A DNA stretch of 60,000 nucleotides, from NCBI GenBank assembly GCA_051294905.1, contig CM119371.1:2916001-2976000 (forward strand). The letters run 5' to 3'. The stretch is from Botryllus schlosseri. Lineage: Eukaryota. Each line of letters starts with the position of its first letter. Position 1 is the first letter of the stretch. The notes below the pieces were generated by a model. That model ran no database searches, was not told the DNA's origin, and was given only the letters and a program-made list of their open reading frames with translations. This document shows, in pieces, positions 37,647-51,200 of this stretch. The position numbers and the translations under genes are program-made.

Positions 37647-38957
37647 TAGGGTTACCATATCATTGTGAAGCAAATTCCGGACACTCTTTAGTGCCCACTA
37701 GCGGATTTCAAAATGAGGTTTTACACATTGTCCGTCAATATGACGTCACACCAGCAAAGCATTGCTCATCGAGTGTATACACCAGGGGTGTCAAACTCAA
37801 CTTGCGTCGCGGGCCAGATCGAAACCTTCAGAGCACTCGCGCGCGGGTCGGACCAGTCAAATGGTTCCAAAATGTTACCTCAAAATCCATGCCCTTGTTT
37901 TTAACTTGAATCATAGTCGTTTACAGCACTGAATCGCCATTTGTTAGAAATGTGCTGAAAATGCGTGCGTCACGGGTCGGATGAAACTGTCTGGCCGGCG
38001 GGATGCAGCTGGTATACACTATACAGGACCGAAGTGGAGTATACGTCATGAATTGGGACATCTGTAATGTGAGCTCTGGTGATTTCTACTTGCTAGGGTC
38101 TGCAATAAATTCCTATATGGGCTGGATGAAACCGTCTGGCGGGCCGTGTCTGGCCTGTCAGGATTGTGTTTGTTAGGTCAGTGCAGCTATCTGGTTATGT
38201 GTATCAGGTCCGAAACAACATATTTTCTGCCCCCTTTCCCTAAAAAAGCACTGATTTTGGGCCCACCATAGGGTGGTCGATGTAACTTGTTGGACACTGA
38301 CTATATGCATTTACCTGTTAAATTTTATGTATGAATTCCGTCAATATTATTGATTCTTCCATATATTAGGCTCATACAATGCACCAGAGGTCGCACATCC
38401 GGTGATTTCCAACCTTTTATGGTTGCAACCTCATTTCCAACTTGAAAATGTTCGTGGCAAAGTTCAAAACTTGATAAGCTGATTACTAAAAACCTTCAGC
38501 TTGCCTAAACTCACTCACGGCCTAGGAAGCTGATTACGTCCAAAGTCTTCGCGATCCCCAGATAAAGGCAAACGAGCTCAAGATTTGGAACCACTGTCTG
38601 TGACTGAAGCATCCAATCGGCCTTAACCAACTCTAGGAATATACCGTTAGCTTATAATTACGATTACGATCGGACATATTTCAGTGAATGATGGTCATTT
38701 ATATTTATTTTGATCGCATTTTTGATGAGGGTGGTGCCTGGTGCCCATACTAATATCATTAGGCCTATACGTTGCAACGACGCGAAGAAGAATTTTGAAT
38801 AGCATAAATACGCTTGAAAATAATATTGTTTATGTGGATTTACAAAAAACTTCTGAGCCTGCTTCAAGCCTTCAAAATTCCGGACATTTAGGCATATTTT
38901 AGAAATTCCTCCCGGACGCAGTTTTTTCAGTGAAATTCCGGACGTATGGCAACCCTA
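37647..38957. mobile_element. Non-autonomous hAT-type element with nested insertions
   Basis: TIR TAGGGTTACCATA...TATGGCAACCCTA; perfect 8-bp TSD GAATAGAC; subterminal TTCCGGAC motifs at both ends. Confidence 0.85.
37783..38011 (+). mobile_element. Small hAT-type MITE nested in the 37647-38957 element
   Basis: Left end CAGGGGTGTCAAACTC...CGCGGGCC; flanking direct repeat GTATACAC (37775-37782, 38012-38019); right TIR decayed. A related end occurs inverted at about 49490-49560. Confidence 0.7.
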
Positions 38958-39115
38958 GAATAGACCATAACAAAGTGAACAGGATTTCATCGTCAAAATA
39001 GCTCAATTACAGACAAAATTTCAAATCTGCCTTGAAAAAGCCTTTCAATTCCACAGTTGAATGACCAATGATCATTAAAAGCATATTTTCATCATGCTAT
39101 AACTTGGAAACTATA

Positions 39116-39246
39116 GGGGAGAGTGGGTAGGTATGGGCCACTGGGTCACTAATGACAGTCTATACCGAAATTTAGGAATATTAGACAAAGTTTGGCCAAG
39201 TTATAGCTTTGTAAGATTTAGTGGCCCATACCTACCCACTCTCCCC
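39116..39246. mobile_element. 131-bp MITE with 25-bp perfect TIRs and TA flanks (Tc1/mariner-pogo type)
   Basis: TA|GGGGAGAGTGGGTAGGTATGGGCCACT ... AGTGGCCCATACCTACCCACTCTCCCC|TA. Confidence 0.8.
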
Positions 39247-39963
39247 TACTTATGGTATGTAGGCCAATTCATTCAAAATAAATTGATATTTACCAAGATA
39301 TATTCCACTCGTTATGAGAGAAATTTCTGAAAAATATGAAACTAGATGGAGTCCAGATCTATTATCATGGCACAAGCAATCCATTACGCTGGATTGATCA
39401 CAACTCAAGGTCAAACTTGATCAGACTCGCAGCATTGTTTTACATAGAGGTAGGCTACATATTATCTATAGGATTGTGACACAATGATTTGCGTACCAGT
39501 ACTCGAATATGATTCAAGTATCATCAACTCTACTGATTCGAGTCAAATAGTGAAATCTGATTTTTTGGACTAATGAAGCTTTACGCCCAGTTTTATCAAA
39601 AAATTAATAATTGCAAACATTTTCTGAAACTTTGATTGGACATATCGCAACATACAAAATATGTTGTACAAAGCTATGAACGTTAGCGGAAATGACATTT
39701 CTGTGTAACTGTGATCAACTTACAACATTGTCACAGAGACAAATAAAGTATTTTCAAAAAATTCCAAATTATTATTATGTGGTGAAGAGCCGGCCTTATG
39801 TTACGTAGTTACATGAAAAGTAGGGTACATACTCAAGCTTTTGGGACTCCCATATACTTATATCGTCATCATGATTGATTATCAAATACTCGGCGTGAAG
39901 TCAAATACTCATTCAGAATAGAATCACTCAGGTACCGGTATTCGATTTGCCCAGATGTAGAGT

Positions 39964-40250
39964 AGGGGTTAAACTCGCTCAGAGGCCAAACGCCAGACGC
40001 CAAACGCCGAGCGGCGGCCAAATGTCTGTACGGCGTTTGGCGTCTGTTATGGTGAGACGCCGAGTAGCTATACGGCGTTTGGCGTCTGTTATGTTCAGAC
40101 GCCGAGTAGCTATACGGCGTTTGGCGTCTGTGATGTTCAGACGCCGAGTAGCTATACGGCGTTTGGCGTCTGTTATGGTGAGACGCCGAGTAGCTATATG
40201 GCGTTTGGCCTCTGTTATGTTCAGACGCCGAGTAGCTATACGGCGTTTGC
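39964..40250 (+). repeat. Left inverted terminus plus about five tandem 42-bp subterminal repeats of the Zisupton element
   Basis: Unit CGGCGTTTGGCGTCTGTTATG(G/T)T(G/C)AGACGCCGAGTAGCTATA starts at 40031 and 40073 and continues with period 42. Confidence 0.9.
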
Positions 40251-40432
40251 CCCCGATTGGTGTCTCGGTAAACTGAGCAGAGGCCTAATCATTTCATGGT
40301 GCGACTATCAAGTTCTCGCAACTATGTGATATCTAAGATTGCAAGTTGTAAAATTTTTGTCATAATAAGCGGTGGCAGAATCCCAAATGATCTATTGCAT
40401 GTTCAGCTGTATCAAATTATTGTATCACCGCC

Positions 40433-40805
40433 CACGGTTGCAATGAATCGAGTCATGACTCGACTCACTTTCTTAAAAATGGATTTACTCATTGTATGAC
40501 TTTTTAAGAATGGTATATCGGGACTGATAAATAGGCTCAAACCTGCCTTTTATCTGTTACAATAACCATGTTTAGAATGGAAAAAATGAAGATAAAAATT
40601 ATCCGAGACCTTCGATATCACCCCCGCGAGTTCCACAGAAGTGATCTGAAGCTGAACTCTATGGGGAACAGTAAACACCATGACTTGGACTCGACCCATT
40701 GCTCTCAGGTTTGACTCGTTGGGGATTGCTCGGACTTGACTCGCCGGTGAATTGAAAACGACTCGACTTGACTTCTTGAAACCTAGTGAATCGGTTGCAA
40801 CCCGG
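40433..40805 (+). mobile_element. Degenerate, internally deleted GACTCGAGTC-family MITE inside the Zisupton 3' region
   Basis: CACGGTTGCAATGAATCGAGTC...TTGCAACCCGG; 8-bp TSD TCACCGCC/TCACCACC. Confidence 0.75.
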
Positions 40806-40874
40806 TCACCACCCCATATTTGTACACTCGCAATGAATTTCAGACCCAAGTCTGCAGATACAGCATGTAATGAA

Positions 40875-41416
40875 ACCACAATATGAAATGGGCAACGAAA
40901 CCACAGCAGAAGGCAATGAAACCACGGTAAAAGTCATCGAGAAATAAGAAGTGGAACCACAGTAAAAATGACTGAGAAATATGCATTGCAACCATAGTAA
41001 AAGTCACAACGAAATAAGCAGTGGAAACACAGTAAAAGTCAGAGAAATATGCAATCAAACCACAGTAAACGTCACTGAGGAATCAGCAGTGGAACCACAG
41101 TAAAAATGACTGAGAAATATGCATTGCAACCATAGTAAAAGTCACAACGAAATAAGCAGTGGAAACACAGTAAAAGTCAGAGAAATATGCAATCAAACCA
41201 CAGTAAACGTCACTGAGGAATCAGCAGTGGAACCACAGTAAAAATGACTGAGAAATATGCATTGCAACCATAGTAAAAGTCACAATGAAATAAGCAGTGG
41301 AAACACAGTAAAAGTCAGAGAAATATGCAATCAAACCACAGTAAACGTCAATAAGAAATCAGCAGTGGAACCACAGTAAAATTGACTGAGAAACAGGCAA
41401 CGAAACCACAGTAAAA
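40875..41416. repeat. 138-bp higher-order tandem repeat (about 3.3 copies, built from four roughly 34-bp subunits) downstream of the transposase stop codon
   Basis: GTGGAACCACAGTAAAA recurs at 40951, 41089, 41227 and 41365. Subunits share (A)ACCACAGTAAA. Confidence 0.9.
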
Positions 41417-41433
41417 TATAGAAGCATCAGAAT

Positions 41434-44400
41434 TCACACCACAGTACATAGCATGCAATAAAAATCATCATCAGGATCAGGTATCCGCTGTCCCGGGCAA
41501 CAGTCCTCGTGTGTCCATCGACCACAGCCGTCACACGCAACCTGGAAACAAGTTAGAATCAATATACCCGACGAATGTAATCTCGTAATTGCATACCCAT
41601 TTCATGTCTTTTTTTGGGGGGTCTTGACTACCGCATTTAATGCAATAATCTTCCAATTCTTTCTCATCTGCGGGAGAAACATGCAACGTATTTAATATGG
41701 TTTTAACCTGACATGGACCAGCATACCCGTCGCATCAAGCAAAATTTGACCAAACTGCTGGCGGTAGCTTTCGCAAGCTTGTTGAGAATGATCAAAATCC
41801 AGGTTTGCATCGGGGATTGATAATCCAGTGGTTAAGTAGAGTTTGGCAGCCTATTAAGTGTCAGTTGATTGCAAATTAATTTTCTCAAATCTCAATACAT
41901 GAACGCATCACAAACCTTCAAAGCAAGGACTCCACAATTAAATCCGTCATTTTGAACACCGGTCCTTATTAATCCTGTATATCTCGCAACTGATTCTCTT
42001 CTTGAGTACGTTCGTATAAATTCGCTGGATTAATACAGAAATGAAATATGTCTCTTGAATACGACCTCATCAACTTACTCAAACTGTTGCAAGACATTCC
42101 CATAGCGATCCTCGTGGCCCATTGGATCGTATAGTAGAACCATATTTGATTCAACGTCAGATACCTGAAAGAGTATATACATACATTACACTAATACAGA
42201 ATATATTGACGAGACAGAACATGGGTGGAAGGGGTGAGAAGCAATGAGTTTCACAAACTTACAATATCAAGGTAGAATCTGACAGGTATGGAACATGCTT
42301 ACCAAAAGAATCCAATGGTTGCCCCTGCCCACACCAGTTCCGCCACAACGAACATTAAGTGGCGCTACAAAAGATTTTGTAGCTGCTTCTTTCTAGAGTG
42401 AATCACTAAATTAGAGAATATTCAAAAGTCTTGTTACTATTACACATACTGTTTTCTTTTTGCCAGAGGCAAATTTCCCAGCAACAAACCAATTAGTAGC
42501 TAGCAGACAGGAAACAACCATTGTATGACCTTCCGACTGAAATTACAAGCTTTAAATAGCTTTCAGCAACAAAAAACTTGAGCAAGGCAATGACTTACTT
42601 TTTCATTGAGAGCAAAAAGAATACAATCCATCAACTGAAATTTATGAGATAACAAGATCAATAAGTCGTCATGAAAATGACAGCAGAGCAAATGACCGTA
42701 TCATTTAGCCAGCCACATCCATTCAAAAGCAGCATGTCTTGTGTGGATACAGGTAGCCGATTCACGACAGCTTCAATCCTATTTGCTTTATGCGCCGACG
42801 TAAAAAGTGAATTTATTTCTAAAAAGAGTATTATCATCAGTACGATAAAATTACCAACATGAAATATAAAGAAACATACCTGTGAATTTGAATGGAAGTA
42901 TCTGGATATCTTTGCATTTTGTGGCATTTTTGTCCACAGAATTTTCAAATGCATCTCTTGCAACAATGGAGCAAGATTCCGTTTTCGGCTGAGACAATTT
43001 GTCATAGCATGAATCAACAGATATGGAATTGGTAACAGAAGCAACATGCGACGGAACAGTCACAGTAGCAATAGTGAGACGAGCGGGAACATTACTACCA
43101 CTTGATGCTTGTACAGGGTTGGTGACAGTGGGAGGAATAGTGGCTTTTTTATCAGTTCGTGACACCGTTGCAGAATTGGCCGACCGGTCGTAGAAGGAGC
43201 AAGTAGCTACATTGCCGGGCAGTTTTCCAACTGGTCCATCATCTGTGGGTAACAAGTCCATATTAAATACACTGGAAAATCAAAATTTGACTTAATGATG
43301 AAACAAAGTCACAGATGGAATTTGCAGCTACTACCTTTCATAGCCAGTGTCGCACGGCCATCATCTGCGAGGACAACAGGCTTGGAGAAATGTCTCTTGG
43401 TCTTTTTCATATATCTTTCGTTAATCTTCATATTTTGAAGATGCAGGGAAACTCTCGACAGAAATATGAAATTTACTGGATCCATATTGCAAAGAAAATG
43501 CCTGAAATACCCATGTTTTAGCTAGTGCTATTCTATATGTGGCACACACACAATTCACTGACCGGTCTCGTGCCATGATAGCATTTTGCTGCTCAGCAAT
43601 ACTTGTGTTAACAAGAGCCAGGTCTTTACAGTATTTCATATCTCTGAATGACTTCTCAGCAGACTTTTTCTTTGATTTTTGATGGAAACGATCACCGAGA
43701 GAGTAGAAAGTCCCAGGAGTTTCGTCCAAGCGTATTGAAATTGGATCAAGATGACCCTCTGACTCCTTCTTGATGTTATCTGGAGTGCATTCAAATAGCA
43801 TTCCTCTGAATGGCGAGAACATGCCCGGAGAGCGATTTTCCCCATGGTGGGCAATCTAGAGAACGGCAAATGATTGTGACGCACATAAGAATGACTGATG
43901 ATTTATGAGATTTCCACTTACCTGAGAGGCAATGTCCGAAATTATGACTCGGGGTTGATGTTTGAATGACAACAAAGCATCAACATAATCTCGTGCACTT
44001 TCTTGACGTAATACATATTTAAAATAAACACATATGCCACATGGACATCGGAGATGGACTATTCCCCCTGCCAAGTTAATAGAATATAAAAAGTCGAGTT
44101 ACTCCAGTCGCCTGTGGAGTCTAGTATGGTATAGAAAGTTTACCACCACATTTGGTAATGCTCTTGAACATTTTCGGGGTGATCGTTTTGAACAGTAGTA
44201 GTTCATTAATTTTATTAATCAAATCTCCTTTGCTTCCCGTGTCATTCATTCCCACTTTTTGACAGATGTCACGCAAGTCACCAAGTGTGTTCTGAATATG
44301 CAAATGAAGTGTATCATACAATTGCTACTAGGATTTCGATCATACCGAAGGATTGTTTAAAGTCAGAAGTATCTCGTCCTCTGTTGTTGGAGCTGCATTC

Positions 44401-47400
44401 AGTTTGGACTTTTCCAAGGGTCTTTTAATAAGAGTGCCTTTCCGGTGTTCCGTATTCAAAAGAAGATCTGATGACCTGCAGCTTTTTGCCATCCAAGGTG
44501 CGACACTGTCGTGGCTTATTTTCACCTTCCACGGATTGGCGGACGTTCCTATAAAACAATACAGTCACTAATCTGTTGTTGAATGATATGTCTGAACTTA
44601 AAGTCATCTGTGTCGATCAGGGTTGTAATGACTCGAGTCATGACTCGACTCGAGTCAGACTCGAGTCACGATTTTCGGATGACTCGACTCGACTCGAGTC
44701 ATTTTCTCAAAATACGGAAATGACTCGACTCGACTCGAGTCAATCTGTGTATTGACTCGACTTGAACTCGAGTCATTGCGCATGACTCGAAGCAAGTCAT
44801 TGACTCGAAATTCAGACGGCGAAGACCGACATTTCATTGTAATTTCGAAGCAAACACACTATTGGGATTTCGTTTATTGGTACTGGTGCTTGAGAATGCG
44901 ACCAGAAACTGCTAAAAGTGAGGAAAATTGATATATTATAAATGCGAACCATTCAATATCACCAAACAGAGTTAAAAAAGTGGGTTTAGGAAGACTTTAA
45001 CTGGAAACTGAGCAGTCAACACGATGACTTGGACTCGGACTCGAGTCATAATACCACGACTCGGACTCGATCCTCTGTTCGCTGACTTGCACTCGGACTT
45101 GACTCGGTGGGAATTGAAAATGACTCGACTTGACTCGAGTCAAAAATATAAAAGTGAGATTGACTTGTGACTCGGAGCCTTGTGACTTGGTTACAACCCT
45201 GGTGTTGATCTAGAATGGATCCTCTGTTATCAGCTCCGAAAAATTTAATTACCACAGAATCCTCGGCCAATAATTTCTTTTCGATATGCCATCCAAGAAT
45301 CCTCAATATTTACAGTGTCTTCAAATTGCACATCTCTCTTGGTAGCATCCACTGTAATAAAATTCATACAGGAAATTCAATGAGTGATGCAGAACCATTG
45401 AAATTCAAACATACCGTCAATAGCACATGTATTCTTCCAATTGCCATCCCCTACGACTATGGATGGGGAATTGCCACATTTTAGACAGGCGAAACTATCA
45501 CTCATGTCCTGCAGAGCCAAAAAATGGAGAAATGCATTTCTTAATTTGTTTGTCGGAATTTCATCAGAAAACAGGGATGCAAGATTGGCTCCCACTGAAA
45601 TGTGATTCTGGAAGACAGTAAACACATGCATGGAATGGCAAGAACTAGATATGGAATTAAGATACCTGAATCCCATTCTTCAAGTGCATACATAGTCGCA
45701 GCGTCAGTAATATATGACCATCAAAATTATGCACACCAGACTTGTAATTCTGGAATCGAACCTGCCAGCCACACGAATTGCAAGACTTTTCCTTGATACA
45801 GACTCCTAAAATTTATCGGATTGAGAACAGAATGAAATAACCTCATTTGATGAACTTGAGCTATATTGCACTACAGCAATGTTTAAAGAGCTTCTTGGAG
45901 CTTCAATATACAATTGAATAGCATATAGAATTACAGCAATGAAAAATAAAATCAATTACCTTTCCACATACAACCCACTCCATAAATCTGAGCTTTTCGC
46001 ATTCCGCTCACTTCAAGAACTCCAGCACACCTTGCACAAACAGTTTCTTCTGGCGTTAATTCTGAAATTATTCCTTCCTTCAAATATTCATTAGGTATCT
46101 TTTCCGGGATCAGTTTATGCTCGAGATAATACTTCATATTCAACTGCATGTCATCAGTAGGAGGTTGAGTACTGTAAATCAAATATTAGGAAATTAATTA
46201 TGGAATCTTCGAAAGTCATGCGATGAAGATTACCTCGACATACATGATATGAGATCTGGTTCAGTCTGGAACACATACCATTTTGCCAGTGTGATGTGCA
46301 AGCTTGTTCCAGTTTTCCATGAGCACAGACATGACCATGAGCCTCCGTCAACGTCAAATGTCACCCGCACTCTTTCACTAGGACTATAGTATGTCGTCTC
46401 GCCAGTGAAGATGGAATAATACTTGTATTTCTTCGAAATATTGAATGCTTCAAAATTCGCATGCACCACGAGTGGAGCATTGCATTGCACACTCCTCATT
46501 CTTTCACTGCTGCATTTTTCACTAGTTGCGGTTGATATTAGCTTCATTTCAACGAGGGTGTTCAAAACCTTTTCATCTAAATCAATGTTTGCACATGGGC
46601 GTGCATTTTCTACAGCATCTAAATGATCACATTGGACCCCGGGATTTTTGTCCTTGAGGGTCCCAAAAATTGATATACAGTCTTTGTCTTCACACCCAAT
46701 CAGGCTTCGTAATAAATGCTTCGTAACGTGCAAAGGAGCAGCTTGGCCTGATGATCCTTGCGAGACCATAAACACACCATTTTTCGGATCAATACAAACT
46801 GCAGGAAGGGTTGATGGATGGCCGTGGGCATCTCGTTCATGTCTTGTCAAGCCATGAGACCTTGCATATGACTTGTCGCATTTGGTGCATTGCTTTTTAC
46901 TTTTGCTATCTGCTGGTTGATTTAAACGACGAGTCTTGCTTTCCTTGTTTGGTGGCGGATTGCCACATACTTTCTGTAAATGACTTTGAAATGTACCACG
47001 TCGACCAAGAACTTTAGTGCAGGTATGGCAGTGGTAGTGACTCCTGCCTCTGGCCTGACCAATACGTTCCATACACTTCAAACGGCATGGTACGATATAG
47101 CCTGGAATATGTGAATACAATTAGATACACAAGGGTAAATCCATGTCAAATCAACCACACTCCTATCCACTCTCCACTCCTATCCAAGTAGTTGAGAGTG
47201 GATTATAGTGTATAATGATAGAATATATTGAAGGAAAAATTTCTCCCAATCAAATTGATCATGCATAACATGAACTAGCGCAATTATGTCTACACAAAAA
47301 TTGGAAATTAACATGTCATAATTATGAGAGCTGGTTCAGAGAGAAACATGGCTGACTCCGCTGACATGTCTTGCTAACTAATATTTGATGGGTATAAGTA

Positions 47401-47868
47401 GCCTACCTCAAAATTAATCAACTTTACATAAATACTTCTGAATCCATTGGGTAGGCCTACCGGTTACAATGCAATTTGAGATTAACCACAGCAGAGATTG
47501 GTTCACTCTCAAGTCTCAGATTTTTCTGAAAATTGCCTCAAAACATGAATTCCAGTTTTCAAGTAATCGCAAGCCATGATAATATCAAGCTTTTTAACAC
47601 TCAGTCTATTACCCATAAATCACAATCGAGTAGAGATTCTTCACTAAGGAATGCGACATGGCTATATACTCGGGTAAGATATTTACAGACCTTGCACTTC
47701 GTTGTCGATATAGTGAGGTACACGATGAGCCCAGTGTACCGCCTCGATATGCTCATTTAGCTTTTCTGACGTTTTGAACGTGTAGATTTCGCAGAGACCG
47801 CAATTAAGTTCTTCTGTTATGATTCTAATGAGGTGTGTCAAATCCTCAGTTAGAGCAATCGCTGTCAT
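41434..47868 (-). CDS. Zisupton/KDZ transposase (HMGXB3-related) with C2H2, SWIM-like, CxC, SAP, Ulp1/C48 protease and PHD domains; 21 exons, about 1280 aa
   Basis: Manual GT-AG splice model with all phases compatible and no internal stop: 47868-47691, 47101-46234, 46171-45960, 45805-45666, 45607-45415, 45351-45253, 44548-44346, 44291-44144, 44067-43922, 43855-43563, 43501-43335, 43242-42880, 42818-42697, 42634-42599, 42536-42450, 42392-42303, 42164-42079, 42024-41916, 41850-41727, 41667-41597, 41541-41434 (3843 nt). Motifs: CGLC..HIEAVH and CTKC..HERDAH (C2H2); CLKCGNSPSIVVGDGN, ESARDYVD, IISD, DRFH, NTSIAEQ (KDZ core); LGDLRDICQKVGMNDTGSKGDLINKI (SAP); WLND, NHW, YDPM, QNDGFNCG (Ulp1); CIKC..W VACDGCGRWTHEDC..FYCMLC (PHD). 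The start codon and first intron are the least certain parts. Confidence 0.88.
44618..45201 (+). mobile_element. hAT-type MITE (GACTCGAGTC family) nested in intron 6 of the Zisupton gene
   Basis: TIR CAGGGTTGTAA...TTACAACCCTG; 8-bp TSD GTGTCGAT/GTGTTGAT; arrays of GACTC/GAGTC motifs. Confidence 0.92.
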
Positions 47869-48033
47869 TGCTGCAAGAAAACTCGATAATCATAAGCATC
47901 TAAAGACGTCTACCATAGTGTTCTATGTAGCAGACATCCTTTGTCTGTCGGCGTTAAAGCTCCCAACTTCGACTCTCTAGCAATCCCTGAGAGTGACTAC
48001 CCTCATATAAGATCCTATACGCTAGACAAATTC

Positions 48034-48204
48034 AGACGCCAAGTAGCTATACGGCGTCTCACTTTTCGGACGCCAAACGCCGTATAGCTACTCGGCGTCT
48101 ACGCCATCTAGCGTCTCCGTTCAGCCGCCAAACGCCGTGTAGACATTCGGCCGCCGCCCGGCGTCTGGCGTCTGGCGTTTGGCCTCTGAGCGGGTTTAAC
48201 CCCT
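48034..48204 (-). repeat. Right inverted terminus with subterminal repeats of the Zisupton element
   Basis: Reverse complement of 39964-40090 with a few mismatches. It includes ACGCCGTATAGCTACTCGGCGTCT and a further copy in the opposite orientation at 48034-48058. Confidence 0.9.
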
Positions 48205-51200
48205 GTTGCAGATGTAAGCCTAGTACATACCAGCAAATCTTTTTCCTGCATGATTTCGTCTCCTGCATCGTCGTCCATCGATAATTCCATTTCAAGTCAA
48301 CAACACAGTAACCCACTAGGTCTTAGATTTTTATGTCATTGTAGGAATGCATCTGGTATCTAGCACCGAGTGTGGAAAACATTATTTTTTCAATATTCAG
48401 ACACTGAAACCATCGCATCCGCATCCGGCCCGCCAGGCGATTCTAAAAAAAGGCTGCATTATCCGGCACATTTCTAACAAATGTTCAGATTTTAGTAGGA
48501 AACACTTCCATTCTCTCAAGTCAGAAAATGTCGAGCATGTTCATAGGCCACATTATAACCATTAGACAGTGGTGTTGAGGTTACACTGTAGTCACCATTA
48601 GCAACAAGTCACTGCCATTGACACTAGTGTAACCATACGTTCTGTTTTTTTGACGTTGTCGAAAGTGTTCTCAGTGCACGCTCAAATGGCCTCTTTTTGA
48701 GATTATGTCTTGTTTTTTGAAAATTTTGGTTAAATGTATGTGAAATTCCACTGAAAAATTTGAAATAAGTACTGAAGTAACGGTTGGGCGGGTCTTTCGG
48801 GAGTTGAGCCAGAAATATGAACTTTTTTTATTCAACCAACTACAAACTTGTTTTCTCGGATTTTACCGCCGTATTGTAAGTCTGAAAATTTTATAAAAGG
48901 AGTCCTCTTTTAGATTTCTAAAATATGGTAACCCTAATTGACACTCACTTCCGAGAAGGCAAAAAAGTGCTCAGTGTGTTCACAGTTTTATGGAAAAATG
49001 GACCACAAAGTAGTTATCTGCAGTAGTGGTTAATATAATTATGACAACAAAATATAATTTAAATATCTGTAGTCGCACTCCGTCTGCGCTTATAACTCAA
49101 CATCTCCTTGTCTGCTGTAGAAACTCGAATCACGATGTAAAAATGTTGAAACAACTTTCAACGGCTACGTTTACGGTTGAATCGCTTGTATTTCTCACAA
49201 CGCATATACAGGACTATATTGTCAGATTACGACTAAAACAAAGCTATCATAGCAATATGCCAACAAATATCGTCCGTAAAACAGCTGTTTTAGCAATTTA
49301 TGAAACTATTTAACCGGCCAATCATCGTAATTTCGCCCATTCGGTTGATTGCGAATAAAGGTATTGATGTAATAGAACCGGATAGCCCGTGATACAATGT
49401 AATTATTATAATGCATATAAGCTTTATAATTGAGTAGTAGAGTGGAAAACGAGGGCATGGATTTTGAGGAAATATATTGAAATCATTTGTCTGGTCCGAC
49501 CTGCGAGTTTTGTGAAGGTTTGAATCCGACCCGCGACGCCAGTGGAGTTTGACACCCCTGCTTCAGATGAACAAATTACCAGGAACCACGAATTCCGCAG
49601 CTGCGGTGAATATCTCGTGCATGGAATATAAGTTAATTCATGTGGAGGGGACTCGTACTCTGCGGCAGGACTCAATGATAAACGTGTGATGGTGGGAAAG
49701 AACGTTCCATATATCCAATGCAACTAATACTGGATGATAAGTACTACCTTCTTTCGCTTACAATCTTCTAACGTCTTCCTGAATTCATCTTCTTTCTCAA
49801 CGTAAAGGACATGGACATGGACATGAAGGGGAACGGAAATTGCTCTCCCGCGCTCCAAAATTAGTTTGTAATCGTCGACGGGTATCTGGCCATTCACGGC
49901 AATATCCAGGAGATCCAACTAAAATGCGGAAATTTTTTTTTTCAGACTTGAAGATAGCCACGGAAGAGATCATTGGGTCCGAAGTCACATAAAATGATAG
50001 GTAAATATAAATGCGGTTGGCAATACTTTATGAATCGAATCAGGAATCATACTTGATACTTTTTCCAGCAAGTCTCAATCATCGACCAGTCGATGTTTTC
50101 TTCAACTATGCAATCGAGCACGATCTTGCTTATCTGAACACAATATTGGTTTCATTAGGTAAGATTACTTGATTGTTACGATGTATTCCCATTTGAATAT
50201 TTATTTATATAGTTTCAGTACAATAGTGATTAGTATGAATTCTTCGATTCTCCATAATGCATATACTACATCGGTTTTAGTCACATCCAAGAACATGTTT
50301 TTTTATAAATCTACTTATGAATATGATATGCATTGTACAAACGGATGATATAGAAGATGATGATCAAAGTAGTCATCGTCAGTGGTCAAGTAGAAGTAAC
50401 ACTTTCAATTTCTACTCAGGTAGAGGTATAAGAATCAATATGCAGGTAGTAAAAAAGTGAGTACTCAAAGCCTAGTTTTGTCTGAAAAATGAAAACCGCA
50501 AATAGAATTGAAAGTATTCTAAAATCATAACCACTTGAGTAAGTAGTTAAGTAGGAATAATCTACTTAATTACTACGACAAGTAGAAGTACTTTGTTACT
50601 GATCAACGCTGGACATAGGATATAGGTAGGAACTCTTGCTATGTAACGAGGTCACTCATATTTACCCGAACTTACCTATATACTTGACACGGAGAAACAT
50701 ACCTTATTTTAATTGTTAACTGCCAGCTTTCCAAAACCCTTATTTGTAGCATGCATTGTTGATTTTCACCTCGGACAACGTCAATGCTTGAGCGTACAAT
50801 TTTACTTATAAAATGGATGAAAATTTATCCGTGAAGTACTGTACTTTATATTTTCCAAAATCAAAATTTATGGAAACTTAACACGAACTACTTTCTCCGT
50901 ATCAGAATACAAAATACAACAAGCGATTAGTCTCGTAAAATAGGGTTTTCATGTTCTGGAATCGGGTAAAGATGGTAAACTTTTTCCACTTCGTAGTCGG
51001 CTGACTATAAAAAAGGTCAACTTTCGCTCAGCTCACGAAACACCCGCCTAACAGTTAGTTCAATGTCATTTTATGGTATCTCAGTCGAATTTTGCCCTGT
51101 GTTTCAGCAAAATTCTGAAAAAAGAGGACAAAATCTCAAAAATGACATTACCAATACCCCGAAAAAGGAGGATAAGTCCTCCTAAAGAGGACGTATGGTA

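Follow-up and report, generated by a model that had tools for sequence, protein, structure and literature searches.

We analysed a 60,000-nucleotide stretch of Botryllus schlosseri DNA (NCBI GenBank assembly GCA_051294905.1, contig CM119371.1, positions 2,916,001 to 2,976,000 of the forward strand; "the window") that contains an 8249-bp transposon with one gene, on the minus strand, for a transposase that ends in a predicted Ulp1-type (C48) protease followed by a predicted PHD finger. The open reading frame (ORF) encodes 1211 amino acids (aa), has a single stop, and is divided among 20 coding exons with GT..AG borders throughout; with one 5' untranslated exon, the full gene has 21 exons. The gene model was started from exon borders in sequencing contigs, and the two remaining gaps were then searched for exon chains. 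Four sequencing runs are referred to below: X22 and X24, which are raw RNA-seq runs, and X1 and X3, contig runs for which an RNA origin is a guess only. The 5' exon has an in-frame stop, and the next in-frame start codon is the ATG at 47072. The nine exons of the tail (42818-41434) are in frame with the 11 exons upstream, and Ulp1 exon 1 is in phase with the preceding exon, 43242-42880. An earlier reading of the sequence (the original prediction) had proposed that tail and transposase form one polypeptide; the single 1211-aa frame, and spliced contigs that link Ulp1 exon 1 to the transposase, agree with that proposal. We consider it likely that the element is an autonomous, recently active cut-and-paste DNA transposon, Zisupton-like (KDZ-associated), that encodes this one 1211-aa protein. 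The element and its gene are laid out as follows.

39960..48208, gene on minus strand: whole transposon, 8249 bp; ends set by homology of other copies and by inverted repeats
47698..47962 (start approximate), minus: 5' untranslated exon, from X3 record 8; intron 47697-47102 is GT..AG
42880..47072, minus: transposase coding part (gene model); aligns to ascidian proteins over residues 1-976
47101-46234, 46171-45960, 45805-45666, 45607-45415, 45351-45253 and 44548-44346, minus: transposase exons 1-6 (gene model)
44291-44144, 44067-43922, 43855-43563, 43501-43335 and 43242-42880, minus: transposase exons 7-11 (gene model)
42697..42818, minus: Ulp1 exon 1, ends with WLND (W971); joint 42818/42880 in X1 and X3
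42635..42696, minus: 62-nt intron after Ulp1 exon 1, retained in one transcript contig
42599..42634, minus: Ulp1 exon 2, 12 residues; splice to exon 1 inferred from GT..AG, phase and homology
42450..42536, minus: Ulp1 exon 3; joint 42536/42599 in X1 and X3
42303..42392, minus: Ulp1 exon 4, predicted catalytic His1042 (NHW); joint 42392/42450 in X1 and X3
42079..42164, minus: Ulp1 exon 5, predicted catalytic Asp1059 (YDPM); gene model and profile alignment
41916..42024, minus: Ulp1 exon 6, predicted oxyanion Gln1099 and catalytic Cys1105 (QNDGFNCG); joint 42024/42079 in X1, X3 and X22
41727..41850, minus: Ulp1 exon 7, predicted protease C-terminal helices; joint 41849/41915 in X1
41597..41667, minus: exon with the first PHD Cys pair (C1161, C1164); joint 41667/41727 in X1 and X3
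41434..41541, minus: last exon, with C1179 to C1208 of the PHD finger (its second half) and the stop at 41436-41434; joint 41539/41595 in X1, X3 and X22

The predicted domain order of the protein is C2H2 finger, CxC4 cluster, transposase core with SAP, linker of ~120 aa, C48 (residues ~935-1152) and PHD finger (residues ~1160-1208). Pfam scans of single exon pieces of the transposase part gave matches to zf-C2H2 (26.1 bits) and SAP (23.6 bits); word-based protein searches gave no matches for either the 296-aa first coding exon or the 142-aa linker piece.

The tail is a predicted C48 protease with a complete catalytic set

The first seven tail exons (42818-41727) had been predicted to assemble a His-Asp-Cys triad with an oxyanion Gln from the motifs WLND, NHW, YDPM and QNDGFNCG, and all of these are found. 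The residues are H1042, D1059, Q1099 and C1105, with spacing His-17-Asp-40-Gln-6-Cys, and the Trp of WLND is W971. All four align with invariant columns of a C48 profile, and the invariant columns of alignment A2 (10 rows) are W, H, W, D, Q, C and G. For comparison material we sampled 16 long ORFs around the 53 PF02902 matches of the genome, 15 of which carry C48 above the Pfam cut-off; the home-made C48 profile was built from 15 sequences, comprising 14 ORF segments from the same genome and the relative P0003, all of which pass the PF02902 cut-off as ORFs or proteins. This profile search, which the original prediction had called for, finds C48 in the spliced protein at 50.0 bits (E 6e-15, residues 962-1123), and the best of 500 shuffled tails reaches 3.6 bits. 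Pfam scans of single exon pieces, as opposed to the spliced protein as a whole, gave no PF02902 match at E up to 1.

We assessed the fold on one homologue, P0032 (Clavelina), the tail of which is 34% identical and was modelled with a ten-row alignment. The model has a mean predicted local distance difference test score (pLDDT) of 66.7; the protease core reaches ~67-89, the finger 40-64. The best PDB matches of the modelled tail in Foldseek are SENP2, Ulp1, SENP1 and SENP5 (E 1.7e-9 to ~1e-7), with E of 1.7e-9 to 5e-9 and target-normalised template-modelling scores of 0.62-0.76 for SENP2, Ulp1 and SENP1; NEDD8 proteases and bacterial CE-clan enzymes rank lower (E 1e-6 to 1e-4). A profile of the alignment searched against PDB sequences likewise matches SENP1, SENP2 and Ulp1 over the protease part, with scores that are raised by one SENP-like host ORF in the alignment. 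The tail shares with SENP1, SENP2 and yeast Ulp1 (PDB 2g4d, 1tgz, 1euv) the order of triad and Gln, near-identical spacing and the Trp of WLND; it differs from them in that the homologue's tail is only 14-19% identical and the window's domain forms part of one protein with a transposase and a PHD finger. Structure prediction, which the original prediction had called for, thus gives a SENP/Ulp1 fold for the protease part of this homologue and a pLDDT of 40-64 for its finger. We conclude that the tail is a catalytically complete-looking C48 protease of Ulp1/SENP type, a predicted isopeptidase, and that the homologue's tail, as modelled, folds as SENP/Ulp1.

The last two exons encode a predicted PHD finger

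The claim that the last two exons give a C4HC3 PHD pattern is upheld: all eight ligands can be placed between residues 1161 and 1208. They are C1161, C1164, C1179, C1182, H1187, C1190, C1205 and C1208, in the pattern C-x2-C-x14-C-x2-C-x4-H-x2-C-x14-C-x2-C, with W1185 two residues ahead of H1187. A PHD_2 match is found on the last exon (E 1.3e-3). With two home-made PHD profiles, the first from 9 tails and the second from 6, the 71-aa tail ranks top of 503 sequences, 500 of them composition-matched shuffles of the tail, at 13.5 and 14.6 bits; with composition correction off, the full protein scores 20.0 and 18.9 bits and the 71-aa tail 23.6 and 22.4 bits. A profile of related tails matches, over the finger, the PDB sequences of EBS, PHF2, Spp1, SHL, BPTF, TAF3, PHF8, CFP1 and PHF13, which are readers of di- or trimethylated histone H3 lysine 4 (H3K4me2/3). 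The window's finger has an aromatic residue, Y1160, directly before the first Cys, and W1185 in W-x-H, which we take to be core positions of the methyl-lysine cage of H3K4me readers; because both are present, H3K4me3 would be the likely mark. The evidence for the PHD finger is weaker than that for the protease.

Transcript-like contigs join the tail to the transposase, and one retains an intron

The contigs of X1 and X3 contain nine GT..AG joints (CT..AC on the plus strand) between 43562 and 41539: 43500/43562, 43242/43335, 42818/42880, 42536/42599, 42392/42450, 42024/42079, 41849/41915, 41667/41727 and 41539/41595. A 1092-nt contig of X1 spans 43855-43562, 43500-43335, 43242-42880 and 42818-42697, with 0-2 letters differing per piece, and thus joins transposase exons to Ulp1 exon 1. 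RNA in which the tail exons are not spliced to the transposase had been named beforehand as the outcome that would speak against the proposal; the contigs join them. In the raw RNA-seq run X22, the joint 41539/41595 is present in 6 reads and the joint 42024/42079 in 2 reads. Separately, X22 reads ending at 41814 suggest that another diverged relative is transcribed and spliced. A processed, intronless DNA copy was considered as the source of the spliced contigs and set aside: intron-precise loss was seen in 0 of 59 DNA matches to the tail, in a search that was not exhaustive and used no junction-spanning queries.

One contig differs. A 1546-nt contig of X3 (record 6) is unbroken over 42599-42818, that is, it keeps the 62-nt intron after Ulp1 exon 1, and it is spliced at all other introns that it spans, as partly inferred from depth. 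Depth in the bin of the retained intron is 15.0, where 14.9 is expected if the intron is retained and 9.1 if it is spliced. In translation, the retained intron stops the frame 12 codons past WLNDT. We conclude that intron retention probably yields a second, transposase-only product, and that the tail may come from only a subset of transcripts and may be regulated.

The element belongs to a recently mobile family

To compare ends and duplications we fetched six other copies of the element. The ends of the window's copy have the following features.

39952..39959: target-site duplication, left copy (CAGATGTA), same 8-mer as right copy
48209..48216: target-site duplication, right copy (CAGATGTA), same 8-mer as left copy
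39960..40249: 3' terminal inverted repeat and subterminal repeats (repeat searches)
48069..48208: 5' terminal inverted repeat and one subterminal repeat copy (repeat searches)

The inverted repeats pair 39964-40046 with 48122-48204 (83 nt, 92% match). A 42-bp subterminal repeat is present in 5.3 copies at the 3' end (40029-40249) and in only one or two at the 5' end (48069-48151), and these repeats are candidate binding sites for the transposase. In five of the six other copies, homology to the window's element begins and ends at most 1 base from 48208 and 39960; in the sixth (L014) it extends to the 39960 end but falls short of the 48208 end by a few bases. A perfect 8-bp target-site duplication flanks all five copies with clear ends (the window's and four others), each with its own 8-mer; no target-site duplication was found for copy L013, the ends of which have diverged.

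A DNA search of the 495.5-Mb genome with the tail gave 59 scored matches: five places at 99-100% identity, on different contigs, about a dozen at 91-94%, and an older, decayed group at 75-82%. Four copies were checked for the state of the ORF: it is intact from end to end in the window's copy and the C11 copy, lacks 53 nt within the first coding exon in the C14 copy, and is frameshifted in the C7 copy. A copy on C3 (L010, G000:C3:38081100-38090100) is a 3.8-kb deletion derivative that keeps ~1 kb of the 5' end and complete, open Ulp1-PHD exons and lacks the transposase core. Among the copies at 91-94%, L006 to L008 carry frameshifts or stops or have lost the last Cys. Six of the at least 20 places at 75-82% (L015-L020) are decayed relics with stops, in which the exons for the His and the Asp are gone and ~1 kb has been inserted between the two PHD exons; when we examined these six for selection on the tail, their decay left no signal to be obtained. 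The inverted repeats, the 8-bp duplication proper to each copy, the near-identical copies and the deletion derivative show that the element is a recently mobile family and not a host gene.

Two further repeats lie within the element.

40913..41416: 138-bp tandem repeat, 3.7 copies, directly 3' of the stop codon, in the 3' untranslated zone
44618..45201: nested small element, 584 bp, bounded by short terminal inverted repeats; lies within a transposase intron and is not part of the gene

The 138-bp unit of the tandem repeat is made up of ~35-bp sub-repeats. Alignments to other copies of the element are offset by one 138-bp unit at 40913-41416, consistent with variation between copies in the number of units. 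The nested element is flanked by an imperfect 8-bp duplication (44610-44617 and 45202-45209); the C11 and C7 copies (L011, L012) lack it, and the C14 copy (L009) has it. The C14 copy has a different insertion site yet shares the nested element, so the host element moved after acquiring it. Depth over the nested element runs to thousands in contig runs X1 and X3, and is the highest of the stretch in the RNA runs as well. Outside the transposon, a pair of inverted repeats at 37783-37906 and 49441-49560 (58 and 65 nt, 84-85% match) brackets it at ~2 kb and 1.2 kb from its ends, and these could be a further small element present twice. Just outside the transposon, at 39114-39248, the two arms of a perfect 29-nt inverted repeat are separated by a 77-nt spacer.

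The element is probably Zisupton-like, and its tail is of a known kind

Zisupton is the probable label for the element, judging by its 8-bp duplication, the structure of its gene, its CxC4 cluster and the order of its domains. CxC4 (PF18717, KDZ-associated according to Pfam) matches the window's exon alone at 24.2 bits (E 3.2e-5), below the cut-off of 26.9, and scores above the cut-off, at 33-46 bits, in P0002, P0009, P0032 to P0036 and L025, which are relatives described below. The element resembles Zisupton and other KDZ elements in its 8-bp duplication, terminal inverted repeats, one multi-exon gene (21 exons here) and CxC4 cluster, and differs from them, so far as they are known to us, in that a predicted PHD finger follows Ulp1; the KDZ transposase profile PF18758, moreover, does not detect the window's clade. 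In Bohne et al. (2012, Mol Biol Evol 29:631) the name Zisupton reportedly stands for zinc finger/SUMO protease transposon; the elements are said to have N-terminal zinc fingers and a C-terminal Ulp1, to be present in urochordates, and to have in platyfish a gene of 24 exons, of which the Ulp1 form is reportedly a testis-specific isoform. We know of no PHD finger described after Ulp1 in a Zisupton, and no title or abstract describing one was found in our searches, which covered the open literature and not subscription papers or Repbase reports. No PHD in a Zisupton is described in PMC9977147, PMC9446614 or PMC9179492. According to a passage in PMC12730594, Zisupton makes 8-bp duplications and is the sole KDZ member well characterised as a transposon, and a passage in PMC9297572 gives Zisupton genes as multi-exonic with proteins of up to ~1400 aa.

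The original prediction left it uncertain whether the addition of a PHD finger had been described. For Ulp1 and PHD together it has, in another superfamily: a passage of Bao et al. (2010, PMC2836005) gives the C-terminal domains of Ginger1-9_HM (Hydra) as 'Ulp1, PHD', and in Figure 1e of that paper, according to its legend, the Ulp1 and PHD domains of Ginger1 transposases are aligned with those of Mutator transposases; for Zisupton we found none. Ginger1-9_HM, as characterised in that passage, is like the window's element in having a C-terminal Ulp1 and then a PHD, an intron-bearing gene and an invertebrate host; Ginger1 differs in its DDE transposase, which is like a Gypsy integrase, and in belonging to another superfamily with other ends and duplications. 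Ulp1-bearing Mutator-like elements are also cited in PMC2836005 (Hoen 2006, van Leeuwen 2007).

In the Botryllus genome itself, two ORFs (L021, L030) have a transposase, C48 and PHD in one frame as the window's element does; they differ from it in that the transposase is of Mutator-like element (MULE) type, the C48 domain falls in a separate, well-supported clade, and the first half of the PHD finger is different. A further parallel is RAG1/RAG2, in which a transposase-derived enzyme is coupled to an H3K4me3-reading PHD finger, tying DNA cleavage to active chromatin; in RAG the PHD finger belongs to a different subunit and a protease is lacking, and the likeness to the window's protein is an analogy of logic only. 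We conclude that the Ulp1-PHD tail, being known from other transposon families, does not constitute a new type of system. The new points are the record of a predicted PHD finger in an element of Zisupton-like type, the form that keeps an intron, and the finding that other transposon families of the genome carry the tail in abundance.

The tail is shared with at least one other ascidian and with other transposon families

The 98-aa exon 43855-43562 gave 31 proteins in a full HMMER scan, and a word search seeded with the best long match gave 7 proteins, from the ascidians Clavelina, Styela and Ciona. Three of the relatives align over long parts of the gene model.

P0033: model residues 1-976, 40% identity
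P0034: model residues 3-1150, 33% identity
P0032 (Clavelina): model residues 10-841 and 927-1193, 40% and 34% identity

In P0032 the order of domains is that of the window's protein (CxC4, C48, PHD-like finger), and the predicted protein lacks the last Cys pair of the finger. P0033, which its source calls 'isoform X3', ends a few residues past LDD, the counterpart of WLND, and its alignment to the model stops at residue 976; this end is the same exon border as that of the window's retained intron. Among relatives of the transposase core, residues 440-812 of P0009 have as their nearest ESM Atlas clusters 'HMG domain-containing protein 3' of chordates (score 0.94), which hints at a host gene family derived from such transposases.

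To determine how common the tail is in the genome we scanned the 16 other Ulp1-bearing ORFs of the sample with Pfam (E up to 1e-3) and found PHD beside C48 in 9 of them, in 3 of these above the Pfam cut-off; the transposases concerned are of MULE and KDZ-like types. A simple C4HC3 pattern scan of the 16 ORFs had given no PHD and was dropped as too narrow, since Pfam then found PHD in nine of the same ORFs. The nine are as follows (Pfam).

L021, L030: MULE-C48-PHD ORFs
L023, L024, L028, L035, L036: C48-PHD ORFs
L025: CxC4-C48-PHD-SprT-like ORF
L031: C48-PHD-SprT-like ORF

L025, an intronless ORF of 1355 aa, shares 25% identity with the window's protein across residues 144-1113. Two other ORFs pair related domains: L032 (G000:C16:18453500-18462500) has C48 and a UCH deubiquitinase in 790 aa, and L026 (G000:C14:4971000-4980000) has an N-terminal PHD and a UCH in 1678 aa. 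In a tree of 18 C48 domains the window's domain groups with that of Clavelina P0032 (98/97 support), apart from the SENP-like host ORF. The tails that bear a PHD are spread over three separate clades, each well supported, and the deeper branches do not resolve. We conclude that the Ulp1-PHD tail is probably an old accessory cassette, which this clade has in common with at least one other ascidian and which other transposon families also carry.

We also compared the young copies with one another, leaving out L006 to L008 because they are damaged. Identity in exons vs. introns is 0.990 vs. 0.981 for the C11 copy and 0.967 vs. 0.944 for the C7 copy. Against the C11 copy, the ratio of non-synonymous to synonymous substitution rates (dN/dS) comes to 0.33 overall (17 synonymous and 20 non-synonymous changes), 0.99 in the linker and 0.21 in the tail. 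The direction of dN/dS fits constraint on the tail, as far as such small counts go.

Mode of action and alternatives

C48 proteases remove SUMO or other ubiquitin-like modifiers (Ubl), SUMOylation takes part in transposon silencing, and PHD fingers often read histone H3 tails. On this background the tail may act in two steps: the PHD finger would dock the transposase on histone H3 tails, likely those with H3K4me3, and the protease would then strip SUMO from nearby chromatin or repair proteins. The outcome would be that the chromatin of the element is kept permissive against SUMO-dependent silencing, or that the cut-and-paste reaction is helped; production of the tail would depend on whether the 62-nt intron is retained. 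An anti-silencing or targeting role, of the kind proposed in the original prediction, is plausible, and we put forward PHD docking with local SUMO removal as a tentative mode of action that we infer. A broader form of the idea starts from the presence of the Ulp1-PHD tail, in this genome, on Zisupton-like, MULE and other elements. The tail might be a portable chromatin counter-defence cassette, kept or exchanged by unrelated transposon superfamilies, in which the PHD finger brings the protease to H3K4me3 chromatin, there to strip SUMO and block SUMO-dependent (e.g. piRNA-guided) heterochromatin on the element, with regulated intron retention switching the tail on where it is needed, for example in the germ line. 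This broader form is speculative, and we regard it as unlikely.

Several results weigh against the reading that the window holds a transcribed, Zisupton-like transposase with a working Ulp1-PHD tail. On the side of transcription, that X1 and X3 are RNA is a guess; the X22 reads carry fixed differences from the window, and so come from other copies of the element; neither the joint of Ulp1 exons 1 and 2 nor that of exons 4 and 5 was found among the joints listed above, the latter being supported by depth arithmetic alone; and record 6 of X3 keeps the 62-nt intron. On the side of classification, PF18758 had no match in the 16 representative-library matches (E up to 0.01), in a set of 7 proteins with the full-length relatives (E up to 0.1) or anywhere in the genome (E up to 1), where control genomes were equally blank; nor did Pfam match it on the window's single exon pieces. 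ESM Atlas neighbours with PF18758 score 0.88, 0.84 and 0.82 and serve as leads only. On the side of the finger, PF00628 matches the last exon alone at 22.5 bits (E 1.2e-4, profile positions 12-47 of 47), below the cut-off of 24 bits; with the two home-made PHD profiles, the score of the full-length protein (1.6 and 0.4 bits) does not rise above shuffles; the finger of the P0032 model has the low pLDDT given above; and the predicted proteins P0003 and P0034 have C48 and no PHD. Finally, the signal of constraint is thin: dN/dS in the tail comes from just 4 synonymous and 3 non-synonymous changes.

The best-surviving alternative, which we consider a serious possibility and which is compatible with the proposed mode of action, is that the tail is mostly untranslated: that is, that the transposase-only product prevails and the Ulp1-PHD form is minor or tissue-limited. 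It is favoured by record 6 of X3, unbroken over 42599-42818 while spliced elsewhere, by P0033, the 'isoform X3' that stops at the same exon border (residue 976), and by the testis-specific Ulp1 isoform reported for the platyfish Zisupton. Against it, the frame, splice sites and catalytic residues of the tail are intact in the young copies L002 to L005, and the tail is kept at 34% identity in another genus; a conserved, intact tail is not expected if the region is untranslated.

Next comes the possibility, which we hold to be somewhat unlikely, that the tail serves transposition itself, removing SUMO or another Ubl from the transposase or from repair factors at sites of excision or insertion, with the PHD finger only as a tether. 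ORFs that pair C48 or PHD with UCH or SprT-like domains (L025, L026, L031, L032) point to themes of modifier removal and repair, not of silencing alone, and a role in transposition or repair was proposed for the Ulp1 and OTU tails of Ginger1 in a passage of Bao et al. (PMC2836005); a histone-reading finger, however, would be unnecessary for acting on repair factors. That the protease targets NEDD8 or ubiquitin instead of SUMO is improbable in our view: structures of NEDD8-specific proteases and bacterial CE-clan deubiquitinases also match the homologue's model (E 1e-6 to 1e-4) and the profile, but SENP1, SENP2 and Ulp1 match best by fold and by profile, the profile scores being inflated by the one SENP-like host ORF.

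We give very little credence to the proposal that the Ulp1-PHD exons are a passively carried host gene fragment with no function for the element. Transposons do capture host fragments, and decayed relatives in the genome keep pieces of the tail; but the tail is in frame, spliced to the transposase and intact in its catalytic residues, the domain order is kept in the 34%-identical Clavelina protein and in the 25%-identical intronless ORF, and the C48 tree joins the window's domain to the Clavelina transposon protein (98/97) and not to the SENP-like host ORF. That the locus is a domesticated, transposase-derived host gene is scarcely credible: a passage of PMC3424704 reports Zisupton-derived genes in vertebrates and the nearest ESM Atlas clusters are 'HMG domain-containing protein 3' (0.94), but the terminal inverted repeats, the 8-bp duplication proper to each copy, the five places at 99-100% identity and the deletion derivatives stand against it.

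Implications

Why many transposases carry ubiquitin-like-specific proteases is a long-standing question, and to our knowledge no Ulp1 tail of an animal transposon has been tested biochemically. The element described here adds a member and detail to a known kind, not a new principle. It offers a test case: a family with at least two copies with an intact ORF, transcripts, a full predicted catalytic set, a finger that resembles histone readers and a possible splice switch, in a genome where several independent transposon families with the same tail permit comparison.

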